Origin: Candidatus Levyibacteriota bacterium
GTDB lineage: Bacteria; Patescibacteriota; Microgenomatia; Levybacterales; UBA12049
Direction of reading: 5' to 3'
NCBI GenBank assembly: GCA_029260965.1
Contig: JAJDCG010000001.1
Coordinates: 89,221 to 153,220 of the forward strand
DNA length: 64,000 bases
Positions 11,785-45,468 of this stretch are shown here, one piece after another. Numbering within the stretch: position 1 is the first letter of the stretch; each line of letters starts with the position of its first letter. The notes beneath the pieces are model-generated. The model was not told the DNA's origin. It saw nothing but the letters and a program-made list of their open reading frames with translations, and searched no databases. A program made the position numbers and the translations under genes.

Positions 11785-12300
11785 ATGCGGATACTTGGAA
11801 TAGATCCTGGGATTGGGAGATGTGGATGGGGAATCATAGAAGCAAAAGGCAACAAGCAAATAGCAATAAGCTATGGTTGTATTGAGACTGATAAAGACTT
11901 GCCACTTGATACAAGGCTTGAACAACTTTTTGATCAGGTTACAAAAATTATAAAGACTGAAAAGCCAGAGAGCTTTGCAATAGAGGATCTTTTTTTTAAT
12001 ACCAATGCCAAGACAGCAATGGTGGTTGGACAGGCACGGGGTGTAATTCTCTTGGCAGCGGTTAAGGCTAAGCTTCCGATCGGGATTTATACACCGCTGC
12101 AGGTTAAGATGGCGGTCACAGGTTATGGCAGGGCAGATAAGAATCAAATGGGTCAGATGATAAAAGTTTTATTAAAACTTGATAAAATCCCAAAACTTGA
12201 TGATACAGCAGACGCCTTGGCAGTTGCCATAACACATGCATTTTCAAATAAATTCGAAGCACAAAATAAGAAATCCGAAACGATGTCAAAATACAAATAA
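11785..12300 (+). CDS. ruvC: crossover junction endodeoxyribonuclease RuvC
   Basis: MRILGIDPGIGRCGWGII... with the catalytic D/E pattern. The start was taken at the internal ATG at 11785; the upstream residues of the longer ORF are not RuvC-like. Confidence 0.8.
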   Translation: MRILGIDPGIGRCGWGIIEAKGNKQIAISYGCIETDKDLPLDTRLEQLFDQVTKIIKTEKPESFAIEDLFFNTNAKTAMVVGQARGVILLAAVKAKLPIGIYTPLQVKMAVTGYGRADKNQMGQMIKVLLKLDKIPKLDDTADALAVAITHAFSNKFEAQNKKSETMSKYK

Positions 12301-12358
12301 TCAAATACAAAAAAAGAACATTCGGATTTCGAATTTTTAGTGCTATAATCTCAGTAAT

Positions 12359-13335: not shown

Positions 13336-13363
13336 TTTATAATTTTGATAATTTAAGTTTTGT

Positions 13364-13398
13364 ATTTGTTTCGGATTTCGGGTTTCGTGCTTCGAATT
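13364..13398. repeat. ~35-nt dispersed intergenic repeat copy (tttgtttcggatttcgggtttcgtgcttcgaattt)
   Basis: Its reverse complement matches 22636-22670 at about 31 of 35 positions. Partial copies lie at 12318-12340 and 12932-12969. All copies sit directly upstream of ATG start codons that lack an SD. Confidence 0.6.
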
Positions 13399-13405
13399 TA
13401 AAGTT

Positions 13406-16338: not shown

Positions 16339-16539
16339 ATGACAAATCCTATTAAAAATATTTTAAATAAAGAAATGAGCAGAAAAGATTTTCTGAGTTA
16401 TTCAGGCATGACTTTATTATCCTTTACAGGAGCTCTGACTATCCTGGGAAAGCTTGAAGATGCAGATCTTCTTAAATTCTACAAAAAACAAACAGTTGGT
16501 TTCGGGTCAGGAAGCTATGGTGGAAAGGAGAAAACATAA
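16339..16539 (+). CDS. small protein with Tat-like (S-R-K-D-F-L) signal peptide
   Basis: MSRKDFLSYSGMTLLSFTGALTILG resembles an S/T-RR-x-F-L-K Tat signal in an RK variant. Its stop overlaps the ATG of the next gene (TAATG). Confidence 0.45.
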   Translation: MTNPIKNILNKEMSRKDFLSYSGMTLLSFTGALTILGKLEDADLLKFYKKQTVGFGSGSYGGKEKT

Positions 16540-18365
16540 TGGCACGATTACCAATACCAGGTTCAGATGATGGAACATGGGGAGATGTGCTCAATGATTT
16601 TTTATCTCAAGAGCATAATTCAGACGGAACACACAATGGAGTAAATGCAGGCTCACTCAAGACCACAGGGGCATCAGTTGTTATTTCAGGTGCAGATGCG
16701 CCAACTACTGGACAAGTTCTCAAAGCAACCAGCGCAACAGTTGCAAGTTGGCAAACGTTGAGCTCAGTTGGAACACCTGAAGTTTTAATTGCTGCTACAA
16801 ACACCGCCCAGGATATAAAAGATGTAGCAGATTATACATGCGATGGAGTCAATGATGAAGTACAGATCAATGCGGCTATTACAAGTCTTGTAACTCTTGG
16901 AGGAAGGGTAGTTCTTAGTTATGGAACTTTTACTGTCTCAGACGAGATTTTGATGAAAACAGGGGTAGAAATATCAGGGCAAGGTCCTGGGACACATGTG
17001 AAAGCATCAGGTTTTTCAGCTGGAAAAGCAATGTTTCGTCTAGCTGATGTCAATGTGCATGCTACAGGAATTTATGACATGTTAATAGATGGAAATTTTT
17101 CGGCTGGTGGAGCGGTTGCTGGTATTGATTATGATAATACAGGTGGCGTTTTTACTGGAGGTGCAATCAGTACTAATTCAGATTGCGCTCATCGTCTGCA
17201 ACGTTTGATTGTCCGAAATACAGGATCAGCTGCGACACCTCGTTATGGTTTTCGTAATATTGGTTCATTTGCGTCAAATTTTGTTAGTGACATTCGTTTT
17301 CAGCAGTGTCGTAATGGCGTATATGTTGACAGTCCAGATTCTTTTTATAGCAATCTTGAAATTTCCTCTGCTGATGGAGTGGGTTTTACTATAGCAGGCG
17401 CCAATAATCGTATCGTCAATTCCAAAGCATATTTTAATGCAACCGATGGATTTCTGATTACTGCCGGACGTAATACGTTGACTGGATGCGAGGCTCAGGA
17501 TAATGGACGTTGGGGATTGAACTTAACTGCTGGGGATTGCAATATCGCTGGGTTTATGGCTGACTCAAATCAGAAAAATGATAATTCAGGTGGTGGTGTG
17601 CTGATTGCAAGTAGTGGGAATAATTTGATTGGACTTGATATTTTTGATCGGGCCCCATCTGGTCATACGTTTCCACAAACAAGAGGTGTGTCATTTTCTG
17701 GTACAAGAACTAATAATGTCGTCATAGGTAGAGTTCATGTGCCTAGTGGCACAAACTATGTTGAAGGCATTACATCTGGTGCCAGCAATTTAATTGAAAT
17801 TGTTACCAAACAAGGTAGTACCGCACAATCGTTAACAACAACTCGTATTAACGCTCAGGACACAAAACCTACTGGTGCTTTATTTCAAAATTTTGATCGA
17901 CAACTAGCAGGTAATACGGCTATTGCTCCTACTTCGGGTACTATGCGACTGGTATCTATTTGGTTACCAGCTGGCACTCTAGTAACATCAGCTACTTTTT
18001 GTGCAGGTACAACTGCCATGTCTGGTGGTACACATGGATGGGCTGCTCTATATGATTCTTCACTTGCTTTAGTTGGATCTCAATCAGCAAATGACACAGG
18101 AATTACGTGGGCAGCTAATGCAGCAAAAACTTTTACGTTTGGCTCTACTTATACTACGACCTACACAGGACTGTATTATGTTGGGCTTTTAATGGTTGCA
18201 AGTACTATGCCAACAATGTGTGGTCAAACAATTGGCATTGGGATATCGGGCATGGCGCCTGCAATGGGGGGGAACTCAACTACAAGTCTGACAACTACAG
18301 CGCCTAACCCTGCTGCTGCAATTTCTGGAGGTACTGCAGGCATGATCTACTGTTATGTTGGTTAA
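16539..18365 (+). CDS. right-handed parallel beta-helix (pectate-lyase-like) protein, tail-fibre/adhesin-like
   Basis: 608 aa and GC-richer. Repeated N/G/T-rich beta-helix rungs, for example NNRIVNSKAYFN..NTLTGCEAQDNGRWGLNLTAGDCNIAG. The C-terminus is Gly/Thr/Ala-rich. The conserved N-terminus is MARLPIPGSDDGTWGD. Confidence 0.55.
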   Translation: MARLPIPGSDDGTWGDVLNDFLSQEHNSDGTHNGVNAGSLKTTGASVVISGADAPTTGQVLKATSATVASWQTLSSVGTPEVLIAATNTAQDIKDVADYTCDGVNDEVQINAAITSLVTLGGRVVLSYGTFTVSDEILMKTGVEISGQGPGTHVKASGFSAGKAMFRLADVNVHATGIYDMLIDGNFSAGGAVAGIDYDNTGGVFTGGAISTNSDCAHRLQRLIVRNTGSAATPRYGFRNIGSFASNFVSDIRFQQCRNGVYVDSPDSFYSNLEISSADGVGFTIAGANNRIVNSKAYFNATDGFLITAGRNTLTGCEAQDNGRWGLNLTAGDCNIAGFMADSNQKNDNSGGGVLIASSGNNLIGLDIFDRAPSGHTFPQTRGVSFSGTRTNNVVIGRVHVPSGTNYVEGITSGASNLIEIVTKQGSTAQSLTTTRINAQDTKPTGALFQNFDRQLAGNTAIAPTSGTMRLVSIWLPAGTLVTSATFCAGTTAMSGGTHGWAALYDSSLALVGSQSANDTGITWAANAAKTFTFGSTYTTTYTGLYYVGLLMVASTMPTMCGQTIGIGISGMAPAMGGNSTTSLTTTAPNPAAAISGGTAGMIYCYVG

Positions 18366-18440
18366 GCCTTATTAAGATCGGGACTCCAACACGCTTAATA
18401 TTTTAGCGAACATAAATATATATAGATAAATAAATTAATA

Positions 18441-18733
18441 ATGGCACGATTACCAATACCAGGTTCAGATGATGGAACATGGGGAGACACCCTTAACGAA
18501 TTCTTATTAGTTGAGCACAACTCTGATGGCAGTCGAGATAATGCTAATACGAGCTTGGGGGTTTAGCCTTTATAGGTGGATCAAGTGCTACTGAGCCTCC
18601 AATCAGCTCAGCGGTTTGGGTGACAAATGCATTGGTTGTGCCAAGTGGTACGACCAAAGTCAGACTAATTGATTTTTTTAAGGGTGCAGGAACTGTTAGA
18701 ATTGGGCGAATGTGTATTAGAAAATCCGGAACT
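18441..18733 (+). pseudogene. decayed partial paralogue of the beta-helix gene (41-codon N-terminal ORF, then a frameshifted C-terminal-like remnant)
   Basis: 18441-18487 is 47/47 identical to 16539-16585. It encodes MARLPIPGSDDGTWGDTLNEFLLVEHNSDG... and stops at 18566. The +2 frame at 18569-18733 is open and encodes ...ALVVPSGTTKVRLIDF, which resembles IWLPAGTLVTSATF of the full gene. Confidence 0.55.
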
Positions 18734-22635: not shown

Positions 22636-22670
22636 AAATCCGAAGCACGAAATCCTAAATTCGAAACAAT
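22636..22670. repeat. ~35-nt dispersed intergenic repeat copy (aaatccgaagcacgaaatcctaaattcgaaacaat) in the 5' leader of the P-type ATPase gene
   Basis: The reverse-complement match to 13364-13398. It lies between a putative promoter (TTGTCA at 22586-91) and the ATG at 22691. Confidence 0.6.
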
Positions 22671-22690
22671 TTCAAAATTTAAAAATCCAA

Positions 22691-40140: not shown

Positions 40141-40220
40141 TCCACTATCCTCTGGATTTGAAGTGTGTTAAATGTTAAAATACTTCTTATCATGTATGCC
40201 AAGTTGGGATACATAGATAT

Positions 40221-40292
40221 TCCCCTGTAGCTCAATGGTAGAGCGCGCGACTGTTAATCGCTAGGTTCGAGGTTCGAATCCTCGCGGGGGAG
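40221..40292 (+). tRNA. tRNA-Asn (anticodon GTT)
   Basis: The acceptor is TCCCCTG/CGGGGGA. D-arm GCTCAATGGTAGAGC. Anticodon loop CTGTTAA. T-arm CGAGGTTCGAATCCTCG. The CCA is not encoded. Confidence 0.85.
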
Positions 40293-40305
40293 CAAAATTG
40301 TCAAT

Positions 40306-40392
40306 TTGTAGCTCAGCGGTACCTGCCTGCCGGCAGGCAGGGAGCAGGAAGCTGCTAACTTCAAGGTCCGAGGTTCGAATCCTCGCGTGGGA
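40306..40392 (+). pseudogene. tRNA-like element / probable tRNA pseudogene with 20-nt palindromic insertion in the D-loop
   Basis: The canonical D-arm GTAGCTCAGCGGTA|GAGC is interrupted by the perfect palindrome CCTGCCTGCCGGCAGGCAGG at 40322-40341. The anticodon-like loop is CTGCTAA. The T-arm and 3' acceptor are near-identical to the tRNA-Asn 3' end, but no complementary 5' acceptor strand is present. Confidence 0.5.
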
Positions 40393-42386: not shown

Positions 42387-42856
42387 CTGACTATAGCCAT
42401 CGCTGGCCGTACTTTCTCCATTTCCTCCTTTAGTTGGTTGATGAACCTAAAATTCTCAAATACCTTGAAGATACGCACAAATTGACTGGTTATATTAACG
42501 TTACGATCCCCGAGCCAAATGGGATTTGCAGGTCGCAAATCCGGGAATTGTGCGAACAAATCAGTATATCTCTGAGGTTCGACCCAATCCTTATACTTTT
42601 CACTCCATTTTTCTTGTTCTGCAAAGGGTATGAGGTGATCATCCAGTTCTATCAATACTTTTTTGTGATTCACCTGTAAGTTCGAGCCGATGTTAAACAA
42701 TACTTCTCTTCTCGCGTCACGACCTCCAACCTTAAATTTTATAGCAGAGCCATAAGCAATATCGATTGCTTCTTCGATTTTTATTCTCCATGATGAAAGA
42801 CTGCCGTGAGCGTTTTCTATCTTGTTAATTAGGGTTTGTTTTGTTGATATGCCCAT
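42383..42856 (-). CDS. hypothetical protein
   Basis: 157 aa. Its C-terminal 30 codons are covered by repeat copy A at 42413-42503. A decayed paralogous C-terminal fragment lies at 45302-45468. Confidence 0.4.
   Translation of the reverse strand: MGISTKQTLINKIENAHGSLSSWRIKIEEAIDIAYGSAIKFKVGGRDARREVLFNIGSNLQVNHKKVLIELDDHLIPFAEQEKWSEKYKDWVEPQRYTDLFAQFPDLRPANPIWLGDRNVNITSQFVRIFKVFENFRFINQLKEEMEKVRPAMAIVS
42413..42503. repeat. ~90-nt direct repeat copy A (about 80% identical to 45362-45451)
   Basis: Shared core ttgaa.at.c.cacaaatt.actggttatattaac.ttacgatcc.cgagc. Confidence 0.6.
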
Positions 42857-45305: not shown

Positions 45306-45468
45306 ATATAAATAATAGCATTTATCCCTGTATAGGAACTACTACTGGCTTCACTTTGTTCATTTTTTCTTAGTTGGCCAGTAAACTTGAAATCTTCAAA
45401 CATCTTGAATATGCACACAAATTTACTGGTTATATTAACCTTACGATCCTCGAGCTCAACCAAAAGTT
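45302..45468 (-). pseudogene. C-terminal gene fragment paralogous to the 3' end of gene 42383-42856 (repeat copy B)
   Basis: The minus-strand translation ELLVELEDRKVNITSKFVCIFKMFEDFKFTGQLRKNEQ... matches WLGDRNVNITSQFVRIFKVFENFRFINQLKEEMEK. The frame opens straight after an in-frame TAG stop and the first in-frame Met is the internal M of KMFEDF. Confidence 0.5.

Follow-up and report, generated by a model that had tools for sequence, protein, structure and literature searches.

A palindrome-interrupted tRNA-Asn copy in a Levyibacteriota genome and its likely origin in a GIY-YIG nuclease cassette of tRNA genes

Results and Discussion

In a 64-kilobase (kb) stretch of DNA from a Candidatus Levyibacteriota bacterium (assembly GCA_029260965.1, contig JAJDCG010000001.1, positions 89,221 to 153,220 of the forward strand; this whole stretch is hereafter called the window), which belongs to a genome of the Patescibacteria or Candidate Phyla Radiation (CPR) with about 37% G+C, an intact gene for the asparagine transfer RNA (tRNA), tRNA-Asn(GTT), is closely followed by a dead second copy of tRNA-Asn whose D-loop is interrupted by a perfect palindrome of 20 base pairs (bp), CCTGCCTGCCGGCAGGCAGG. 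With a probability of roughly 0.55, we read this element as the relic of the mirror form of a small nuclease cassette, left when the cassette invaded the tRNA-Asn gene, the nuclease gene itself having been lost. As reconstructed from other genomes, such a cassette would consist of a partial tRNA copy broken by a GC-rich hairpin, most often CCTGCCTGCCGGCAGGCAGG, of a gene for a GIY-YIG nuclease of about 80 amino acids (aa) that resembles UPF0213 and Slx1, and of an intact copy of the same tRNA directly adjoining, so that the tRNA function is kept. That the palindrome in the window belongs to the hairpin family of this cassette is highly probable. The window element itself is non-functional, and the function of tRNA-Asn is carried by the neighbouring gene.

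A dead tRNA-Asn copy with a precise insertion

The dead copy lies on both sides of the palindrome (Table 1). Its left part holds some of the acceptor strand, the D-stem and the D-loop, the 5' acceptor strand being missing, and its right part holds the 3' strand of the D-stem, the anticodon arm, the T-arm and the 3' acceptor strand. The preliminary description, which had been made from the letters of the window only, took the element for a tRNA-like pseudogene derived from tRNA-Asn, and tRNA detection agrees with this: ARAGORN calls only the first of the two tRNAs, and the Rfam tRNA model, the sole family in an Rfam scan that matches the stretch, aligns locally at positions 40307-40387 with 34.8 bits, above the gathering score of 29; no more than model positions 6-65 are covered, the D-loop has a 21-nucleotide (nt) insertion and there is no acceptor stem. 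The lack of a complementing 5' acceptor strand had also been seen correctly, since CAATTTG at the 5' side is unable to pair with CGTGGGA and no 7-bp acceptor stem can be formed. The anticodon and T arms are normal and the D-loop is enlarged by 20 nt; the anticodon loop reads CTGCTAA, where GTT has mutated to GCT (40354-40356), an anticodon ill-suited to the Asn-type class I body of this copy, and the 3' acceptor strand carries one G-to-T change. The fold of the whole dead-copy stretch is no stabler than that of shuffled sequence (z = -0.8). With the 3' part of the intact gene the dead copy forms a direct repeat of 41 nt at 83% identity; the earlier statement that its 3' end matches tRNA-Asn stands, and the count of 3 mismatches given there is corrected to 2 over the last 29 nt.

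Table 1. Features of the tRNA-Asn locus in the window (positions are those of the window)
Feature	Position	Strand	Basis or location
Ancestral upstream flank (promoter region) of the tRNA-Asn locus	40176..40220	+	alignment to the L001 flank
Intact, presumably functional tRNA-Asn(GTT)	40221..40293	+	ARAGORN; Rfam 68.7 bits, full length
13-nt spacer AAAATTGTCAATT	40294..40306	.	sequence reading
Dead tRNA-Asn copy, left part TGTAGCTCAGCGGTA, tRNA positions 6-21	40307..40321	+	sequence reading, Rfam
Perfect 20-bp palindrome CCTGCCTGCCGGCAGGCAGG	40322..40341	.	between tRNA positions 21 and 22 (D-loop)
Dead tRNA-Asn copy, right part GAGC...CGTGGGA, tRNA positions 22-72	40342..40392	+	sequence reading, Rfam

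The character of the insertion can be seen from the closest relative that could be retrieved, GCA_029260905.1 (locus L001; loci of other genomes are cited by such numbers), whose LUD protein is 68% identical to that of the window. Its tRNA-Asn reads TCCCCTGTAGCTCAGCGGTA/GAGCAGGAAGCTGTTAACTTCAAGGTCCGAGGTTCGAATCCTCGCGGGGGA, where the slash marks the junction, and presents the empty site GGTA/GAGC, that is ...AGCGGTA/GAGCAGGAAGCTGTTAACTTC..., without the palindrome, in accordance with the earlier proposal that a perfect 20-nt palindrome had been inserted in the D-loop. When the palindrome is removed, the dead copy is identical with the tRNA-Asn of L001 at 64 of 66 bases, and the only two differences are the anticodon change and the acceptor-strand change mentioned above; the left part is wholly identical, including the lineage-type D-loop AGCGGTA. 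The insertion is precise and has left no target-site duplication, and the same holds for the other sites with known empty alleles, namely the cassette loci L107 and L119 described below.

The two tRNA-Asn bodies of the window are clearly different, and therefore one of them was acquired horizontally. The dead copy minus its palindrome agrees with the intact gene next to it at 52 of 66 bases only, the differences including a fully re-paired anticodon stem; the intact gene in turn shares 61 of its 73 bases with the tRNA-Asn of L001, and its D-loop, anticodon stem and variable loop are unlike the lineage type. The 45 nt upstream of the intact gene are identical with the L001 flank at 29 positions, a score that was equalled by 1 of 2000 shuffles, and as the two flanks are homologous, the tandem sits at the ancestral locus. 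By parsimony it is favoured that the intact body is the foreign one. This comparison of bodies uses the single relative L001, since the relatives L237, L238 and L239 (all with the LUD gene, and L237 and L238 also with HxlR) had no tRNA-Asn in reach. Besides, in L001 (997-2517) the tRNA-Asn overlaps the end of a gene for a serine recombinase of 493 aa, the leading gene of an island that also carries type I restriction-modification genes, an HTH_17 gene and an Mrr gene; integrases thus use tRNA-Asn as a target in this lineage as well.

The GIY-YIG nuclease cassette in other genomes

When the open reading frames (ORFs) of 120 loci with the palindrome were clustered, a small GIY-YIG ORF emerged as the one non-housekeeping family beside the palindrome; as to other genes that might be linked to it, the clustering gave only housekeeping families (GatA/GatC, SmpB, ABC transporters), and these were set aside. 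The nuclease has about 80 aa and matches Pfam PF01541 (GIY-YIG). Among the structures in the PDB, those of UPF0213 (1ywl, 1zg2) match at an E value of about 6e-4, and Slx1 matches more weakly (0.13 for 7wme, 0.84 for 4xlg). The annotation of homologues of the nuclease does not go beyond 'GIY-YIG nuclease family protein' or 'endonuclease'.

The architecture recurs throughout the family, with the palindrome marking one border of the cassette and an intact tRNA always retained beside it. For example in L038, from a record of candidate division WWE3 named 'complete_curated', the order is GGGGACGTAGCTCAGTGGTAGA, palindrome, GCAGCGGC, an ORF of 79 aa and an intact tRNA-Lys that begins with the same 30 nt as the fragment. 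In L107 there are positions 1-46 of a tRNA-Gly, with the palindrome after position 31, followed by the ORF and an intact tRNA-Gly; in L119 there are positions 1-27 of a tRNA-Leu, with the palindrome after position 14, followed likewise by the ORF and an intact tRNA-Leu.

The link of nuclease, palindrome and tRNA is also found in the reverse direction. A set of 80 metagenome loci with 88 nuclease ORFs was picked only by homology of the nuclease (40-57% identity to the query, except one self-match of 100%), and in 53 of 82 cases the palindrome is located within 150 nt upstream of the nuclease ORF in a partial tRNA copy, 43 times in its exact form and 10 times with at most 2 substitutions; a hairpin with arms like CCTGCCTG and CAGGCAGG is present at 71 of the 88 ORFs. 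In 54 of 77 cases the nuclease ORF is directly followed by an intact tRNA on the same strand, the distance from its stop codon to the tRNA being at most a few tens of bases. These tRNAs are for Arg (20), Leu (18), Lys (3), Val (3), Gly (2), Phe (2), Asn (2) and others. Within the tRNA the cassette repeatedly occupies the same positions, mostly after positions 20-25 and also after 9-10, 14-15 and 31-32, and in particular the tRNA-Asn cassettes L164, L182 and L201 use the junction GGTA/GAGC, identical to the site in the window. Among 50,697 records of cultured phages, only 2 weak matches to the nuclease were found.

In 54 of 64 pairings of palindrome and tRNA, which is the usual case, the duplication takes in the 5' part of the tRNA, and the mirror arrangement, with the intact tRNA upstream and the palindrome-bearing copy downstream, accounts for 10 of the 64. 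The closest analogue of the window belongs to this mirror form: in L123 an intact tRNA-Arg is followed by a spacer, a palindrome, the ORF and a palindrome-bearing copy without the 5' acceptor strand, which spans positions 7-75 by automated alignment or 8-75 by reading of the sequence, its palindrome standing after position 22 or 21, respectively. The 13-nt spacer of the window occupies the site where the nuclease gene sits in complete cassettes of the mirror type (compare L123, and the ORF-less L005 and L084).

Degraded and multiplied forms are found as well. ORF-less relics lie next to intact tRNAs in L005, where a fragment that bears the palindrome is separated by a 5-nt spacer from tRNA-Leu, and in L084, where a stub of 22 nt is left of the ORF; L002, L016 and L030 resemble them. 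A divergence of bodies between fragment and intact tRNA, like that seen in the window, is found in L153. Moreover, tandem arrays occur in L125, L140, L141 and L189, in which a unit of tRNA fragment, palindrome, short tRNA piece and ORF is repeated and one intact tRNA stands at the end; such arrays are consistent with recurrent insertion at one and the same position of the tRNA, or with unequal exchange.

Two loci deserve a separate remark. In L123 (1112-1200), the DNA that separates a palindrome variant from an old tRNA-Arg fragment contains a near-consensus sigma-70 promoter (TTGACA, 17 nt, TATAAT), which hints that tRNA promoters drive the cassette. In L169 (1-800) there are three tandem complete tRNA-like copies, each with a palindrome variant after position 9 and with an anticodon arm unlike that of the neighbouring tRNA-Arg; ARAGORN miscalls them as a long tRNA-Pro.

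Distribution of the palindrome and solo copies

The preliminary description had suggested searching for other copies of the palindrome, and the outcome differs by place: in the window there is no second copy, even with 3 mismatches allowed (0 expected by chance), and in other genomes the search is strongly positive. In a scan for the exact 20-mer through one genome per prokaryotic species (596 Gb), it was found in at least 120 genome stretches, where about 0.5 chance matches are estimated for uniform composition, and a viral collection gave 35 stretches with the exact palindrome and none with a control palindrome of matched composition. Listed among the genome matches are Patescibacteria of many classes, Omnitrophota, Bacteroidota, Planctomycetota, Gamma- and Deltaproteobacteria, Bdellovibrionales, Thermodesulfovibrio and Chloroflexi, and the carriers among Bacteroidota include the cultured isolates Winogradskyella, Flagellimonas, Longitalea and Flavivirga. 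The record names of the carriers point to different assemblers, sequencing platforms and laboratories. The flanks of the palindrome are unrelated from locus to locus; some copies are diverged, some are nested, one inside another near the centre, and some lie within larger local repeats. About a dozen sites have a paralogous empty site in the same locus, which again gives a precise insertion of 20 bp.

The 20-mer also occurs alone. Several of the 125 sites in the genome sample are in D-loops of tRNAs, and for the solo copies in L020, L085 and L110 the empty paralogous sites are in repeats that are not tRNAs. The solo palindromes are depleted from coding sequence, as a long ORF spans 20% of them against 61% of random positions. 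Where it is read through in frame, it gives the peptide (x)LPAGRQ(x), as at L014:5955, L105:3773, L048:3381, L022:2815, L044:2000 and L072:5886, the hosts being FtsK, GatB, ribosomal protein S6 (RpsF), dTDP-glucose dehydratase (RfbB) and proteins like membrane glycosyltransferases. Because 20 nt is not a multiple of 3, a further change of 1 or 2 nt must compensate for the insertion at such sites. In GatB, LPAGRQ falls in a loop about 5 residues longer than in the solved structures, and the reference already has GRQ there.

Three further observations concern particular copies. In L094 (820-1180) the palindrome lies in a partial duplicate of a 5S ribosomal RNA (rRNA) gene, about 100 nt from an apparently intact 5S gene (judged by eye, with no RNA model), and because of this duplicate the phenomenon may extend beyond tRNA genes. 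In the viral contig of L226 (2239-2330) the palindrome occupies the variable loop of an otherwise complete tRNA-fMet whose acceptor stem is paired; this tRNA is recognised by ARAGORN with a length of 92 nt, and it might still function like a tRNA with a long variable arm. Six exact palindromes are placed on one viral contig of 29.5 kb, IMGVR_UViG_3300037242_000417 (L222, L229, L230), which is unusually dense.

The hairpin family

The palindrome CCTGCCTGCCGGCAGGCAGG is the commonest form of a family of hairpins with arms CCTGCCTG and CAGGCAGG and a loop of 0-35 nt between them. At 4 of the 8 arm pairs there are compensatory double changes, for example CCCGCCCG with CGGGCGGG, or GCTG.. with ..CAGC, and because the arms covary, the pairing of the hairpin itself is selected and has been conserved. 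Within about 140 nt upstream of the ORFs in L147, L148, L154, L166, L188 and L192, the arms are retained and the centre is expanded by 11-35 nt of additional hairpin, or the arms are the compensated CCCGCCCG and CGGGCGGG; these variants are nested or co-evolving forms of the hairpin. As a possible pointer to a role of the hairpin in RNA or in DNA, 11 C-to-T and 4 G-to-A changes were counted among sense-strand variants, which are probably not independent.

Two simple rules for the palindrome were tried and rejected. Targeting to hairpin loops as the rule of insertion is too weak, with the junction in a predicted hairpin loop at 17% of the sites against 12% of shifted controls, and no enrichment of flank complementarity was found immediately beside the insertions. 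A spliced mini-intron is not supported either, for removal of the 20 nt restores long frames no oftener than other offsets do, and reading through with the palindrome present is commoner than restoring the frame by its removal.

Weighing of the explanations

The window agrees with the cassette in having the exact hairpin, in having it inside a dead tRNA copy after position 21, and in having an intact isoacceptor 13 nt away. Several points weigh against the element being a cassette relic. By a hidden Markov model search of the ORFs and by tblastn, no GIY-YIG ORF of about 80 aa and no recognisable remnant of one was found in the 64 kb, and for this reason a past nuclease gene at the locus is argued by analogy, and the element is filed together with L005 and L084 as an ORF-less relic or a solo copy. 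The tRNA copies are nearly identical in most complete cassettes, unlike those in the window, with L153 as the exception; the call of the resident body depends on one relative; the link between the nuclease and mobility is drawn from sequence; and the majority of palindromes are solo, with no nuclease gene nearby at about 110 of the 125 sites of the genome sample and at 34 of the 35 viral loci.

This solo majority makes it a real alternative that the palindrome moved alone into an already redundant or truncated tRNA-Asn copy, with the nuclease acting in trans from elsewhere in the genome, from a past host or from a phage, and that a nuclease gene never existed at the locus. Such a course would be in line with the missing ORF remnant, with the empty paralogous sites outside tRNAs and with the solo copies that are read through in frame in proteins. 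However, what is missing from the copy in the window is exactly the 5' acceptor strand, and an intact isoacceptor adjoins it, which is the layout of the cassette-derived copy in L123; the insertion between positions 21 and 22 is at the site preferred by the cassette; and a tandem of two diverged tRNA-Asn bodies would need a separate event. Insertion of the palindrome alone is accordingly regarded as rather unlikely. The palindromic mini-element that the preliminary description offered as its second choice, by whose insertion a tRNA was inactivated, was essentially right in view of the precise insertion and the wide recurrence of the palindrome.

The first choice of that description was a scar of an integrative element, in which an element with a tyrosine or serine integrase would have duplicated the 3' end of tRNA-Asn and the palindrome would be incidental. 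It is true that the serine recombinase and restriction-modification island abuts the tRNA-Asn in L001, that L238 has a serine recombinase near HxlR, and that the genes downstream of 40.4 kb in the window have little or no family assignment. Yet no integrase or recombinase was found in the 64 kb, nothing significant in defence-system or integrase content appeared downstream of the element, there is no third repeat in the window, only 13 nt, and hence no island, separate the two copies, and the dead copy covers positions 6-72, almost the entire tRNA, which goes beyond an attachment core; the palindrome is instead the signature of another family of elements, and the matching architecture elsewhere is that of the GIY-YIG cassette. 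We consequently abandon the scar as a very improbable origin. No more credit can be given to a functional RNA of a non-canonical kind, either a tRNA with an intron or extra arm in its D-loop or a tRNA-like 5' leader of the downstream ORF. The D, anticodon and T arms are intact, the Rfam score is above the gathering threshold, and complete tRNAs bearing the hairpin exist elsewhere (L226, and the repeated full copies of L169), but the acceptor stem is missing, the anticodon GCT stands in an Asn-type class I body and the fold is not stabler than shuffled sequence. Moreover, the insert is a perfect palindrome without bulges, too short for the core of a group I intron, and nothing resembling a bulge-helix-bulge was noticed on reading the sequence, with no dedicated motif scan for either; the failure of 20-nt removal to restore frames preferentially at other sites also argues against splicing. 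As for an artefact of assembly or library preparation, an identical sequence across unrelated assemblies is what a contaminating adapter would give, but the palindrome lies in the middle of contigs with genuine flanks, comes from varied assemblers, platforms and laboratories and from cultured isolates, has diverged, compensated and nested variants and copies in larger repeats, and keeps a fixed position relative to a gene family, so that this explanation is scarcely credible.

A possible mechanism

For the relic of a cassette, which we prefer, the following course can be imagined. The nuclease would start the process by cutting a tRNA gene within or close to its D-arm region, and the repair would copy the cassette from a donor by means of the conserved tRNA homology. 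Repair on tRNA homology would let the cassette pass from one host to a distant one and would carry tRNA sequence of the donor with it, and such carried-over sequence would explain the foreign tRNA-Asn body in the window, which is most simply understood as a possible co-conversion from a diverged donor during homing-like repair. The hairpin would be the structure that the nuclease recognises, binds, cuts or processes, which fits the Slx1-type kinship, and the solo copies may come from a collapse between two flanking palindromes or from mobilisation in trans. The homing-type mobility of the nuclease is suggested indirectly, by the tandem re-insertion at the same site and by the chimeric or diverged tRNA bodies.

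In a wider and more tentative proposal, which taken as a whole we hold at a little under even odds, the hairpin CCTGCCTGCC/GGCAGGCAGG and its GIY-YIG partner of about 80 aa would be a previously undescribed minimal mobile element that crosses phyla. The nuclease gene would colonise tRNA genes, and occasionally 5S rRNA genes, in a homing-like manner, duplicating part of the gene so that a working copy stays with the host; the 20-bp hairpin by itself would be its smallest known non-autonomous derivative, which reaches phage genomes and stands in frame in essential proteins; and the window element would be a fossil that documents how a tRNA body was replaced horizontally in a CPR bacterium.

Comparison with known systems

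In function the cassette comes nearest to SegB of phage T4, a free-standing GIY-YIG homing endonuclease in the tRNA region of the phage (PMC2330249), which is passed on along with neighbouring tRNA sequence through break-induced gene conversion (PMC2330249, PMC13096335) and can drive segmental amplification (PMC13096335). In both cases intron-less GIY-YIG genes lie among tRNA genes, and the amplification by SegB recalls the tandem arrays of the cassette. The cassette differs in that its protein of about 80 aa is the catalytic domain alone, closest to UPF0213 and more weakly to Slx1, whereas SegB has an added DNA-binding part. Besides, the cassettes are mostly chromosomal and occur in many phyla, and the partial tRNA duplication and conserved hairpin that always accompany them are described for none of the Seg enzymes.

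Integrative elements that target tRNA genes resemble the cassette as far as both insert in a tRNA gene, preserve an intact tRNA because they carry or duplicate a part of it, and leave a displaced fragment as a direct repeat. In contrast to them the cassette has no integrase, its cargo is a single gene of about 240 bp, its displaced copy is always interrupted by the hairpin, and the duplicated part is usually the 5' and not the 3' one.

As to the palindrome by itself, the Rickettsia palindromic elements and the GC clusters of yeast mitochondria are short, GC-rich, palindromic selfish insertions located in intergenic DNA, in RNA genes and, in frame, in protein genes. The solo palindromes behave in the same way, the in-frame LPAGRQ included, but at 20 bp they are much shorter, they are identical to the letter across phyla and not specific to a lineage, they have no visible target-site duplication, and they are linked to a specific nuclease gene. 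Repetitive extragenic palindromes (REPs) and REPINs with their RAYT gene also combine a dispersed short hairpin repeat with one enzyme gene that is flanked by the repeat; the present system shares a dispersed hairpin repeat and one associated enzyme gene, and it differs from them by a GIY-YIG and not an HUH/Y1 enzyme, by the absence of a GTAG head, by a sequence common to several phyla and by a strong preference for tRNA genes. In the window, the lack of a GTAG head and of a target-site duplication and the single copy in 64 kb likewise separate the palindrome from repeats of the type of REPs or miniature inverted-repeat transposable elements (MITEs).

The YhbQ-like UPF0213 proteins and Slx1 have a related catalytic domain. 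Enzymes of the Slx1 type cut branched or hairpin-like DNA, and by analogy such cutting would fit a hairpin or cruciform as the substrate. The papers that could be searched for UPF0213 and for the GIY-YIG protein YhbQ report neither mobility nor a tie to tRNA genes nor a conserved palindrome for these families, Slx1 included.

Other repeats in the window

Apart from the tRNA-Asn locus, three repeats of the window may be recorded. An AT-rich repeat of about 50 nt (AAATTCGAAGCACGAAA..CGAAAC...) occurs at 12249-12305, 13344-13400 and 22636-22683 in direct and inverted orientation with 79-85% identity. A direct repeat of 86 nt with 80% identity lies at 42430-42515 and 45370-45455, with about 2.9 kb between the copies; this bracketed segment has genes for PNPOx, cytidine deaminase, a further small ORF and DUF5701, and the repeat may mark the edge of an accessory patch or stem from a partial duplication of genes. 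Another direct repeat of 92 nt with 82% identity, at 16536-16627 and 18438-18529, is located at the starts of neighbouring paralogous genes, which share the N-terminus MARLPIPGSDDGTWGD (translated by eye).

Implications

The result for the window alone is modest, namely that a tRNA pseudogene has been explained. What reaches beyond it is a non-coding 20-mer that is identical to the letter across Patescibacteria, Bacteroidota, Omnitrophota, Planctomycetota, Proteobacteria and viral contigs, and that is tied to a minimal nuclease gene annotated only in generic terms. A widespread cassette of nuclease and hairpin that invades tRNA genes is apparently undescribed, as a full-text search of the literature found no description of it. 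If the mechanism sketched above is true, it would give a candidate function as mobility nucleases to the present group of UPF0213-like proteins, it would explain a class of tRNA fragments and of tRNAs called 'with introns' by gene finders in genomes from metagenomes, and it would open a route for the horizontal exchange of tRNA gene bodies. Moreover, the nuclease and its recognition hairpin would then form a very small pair that is tractable by experiment.

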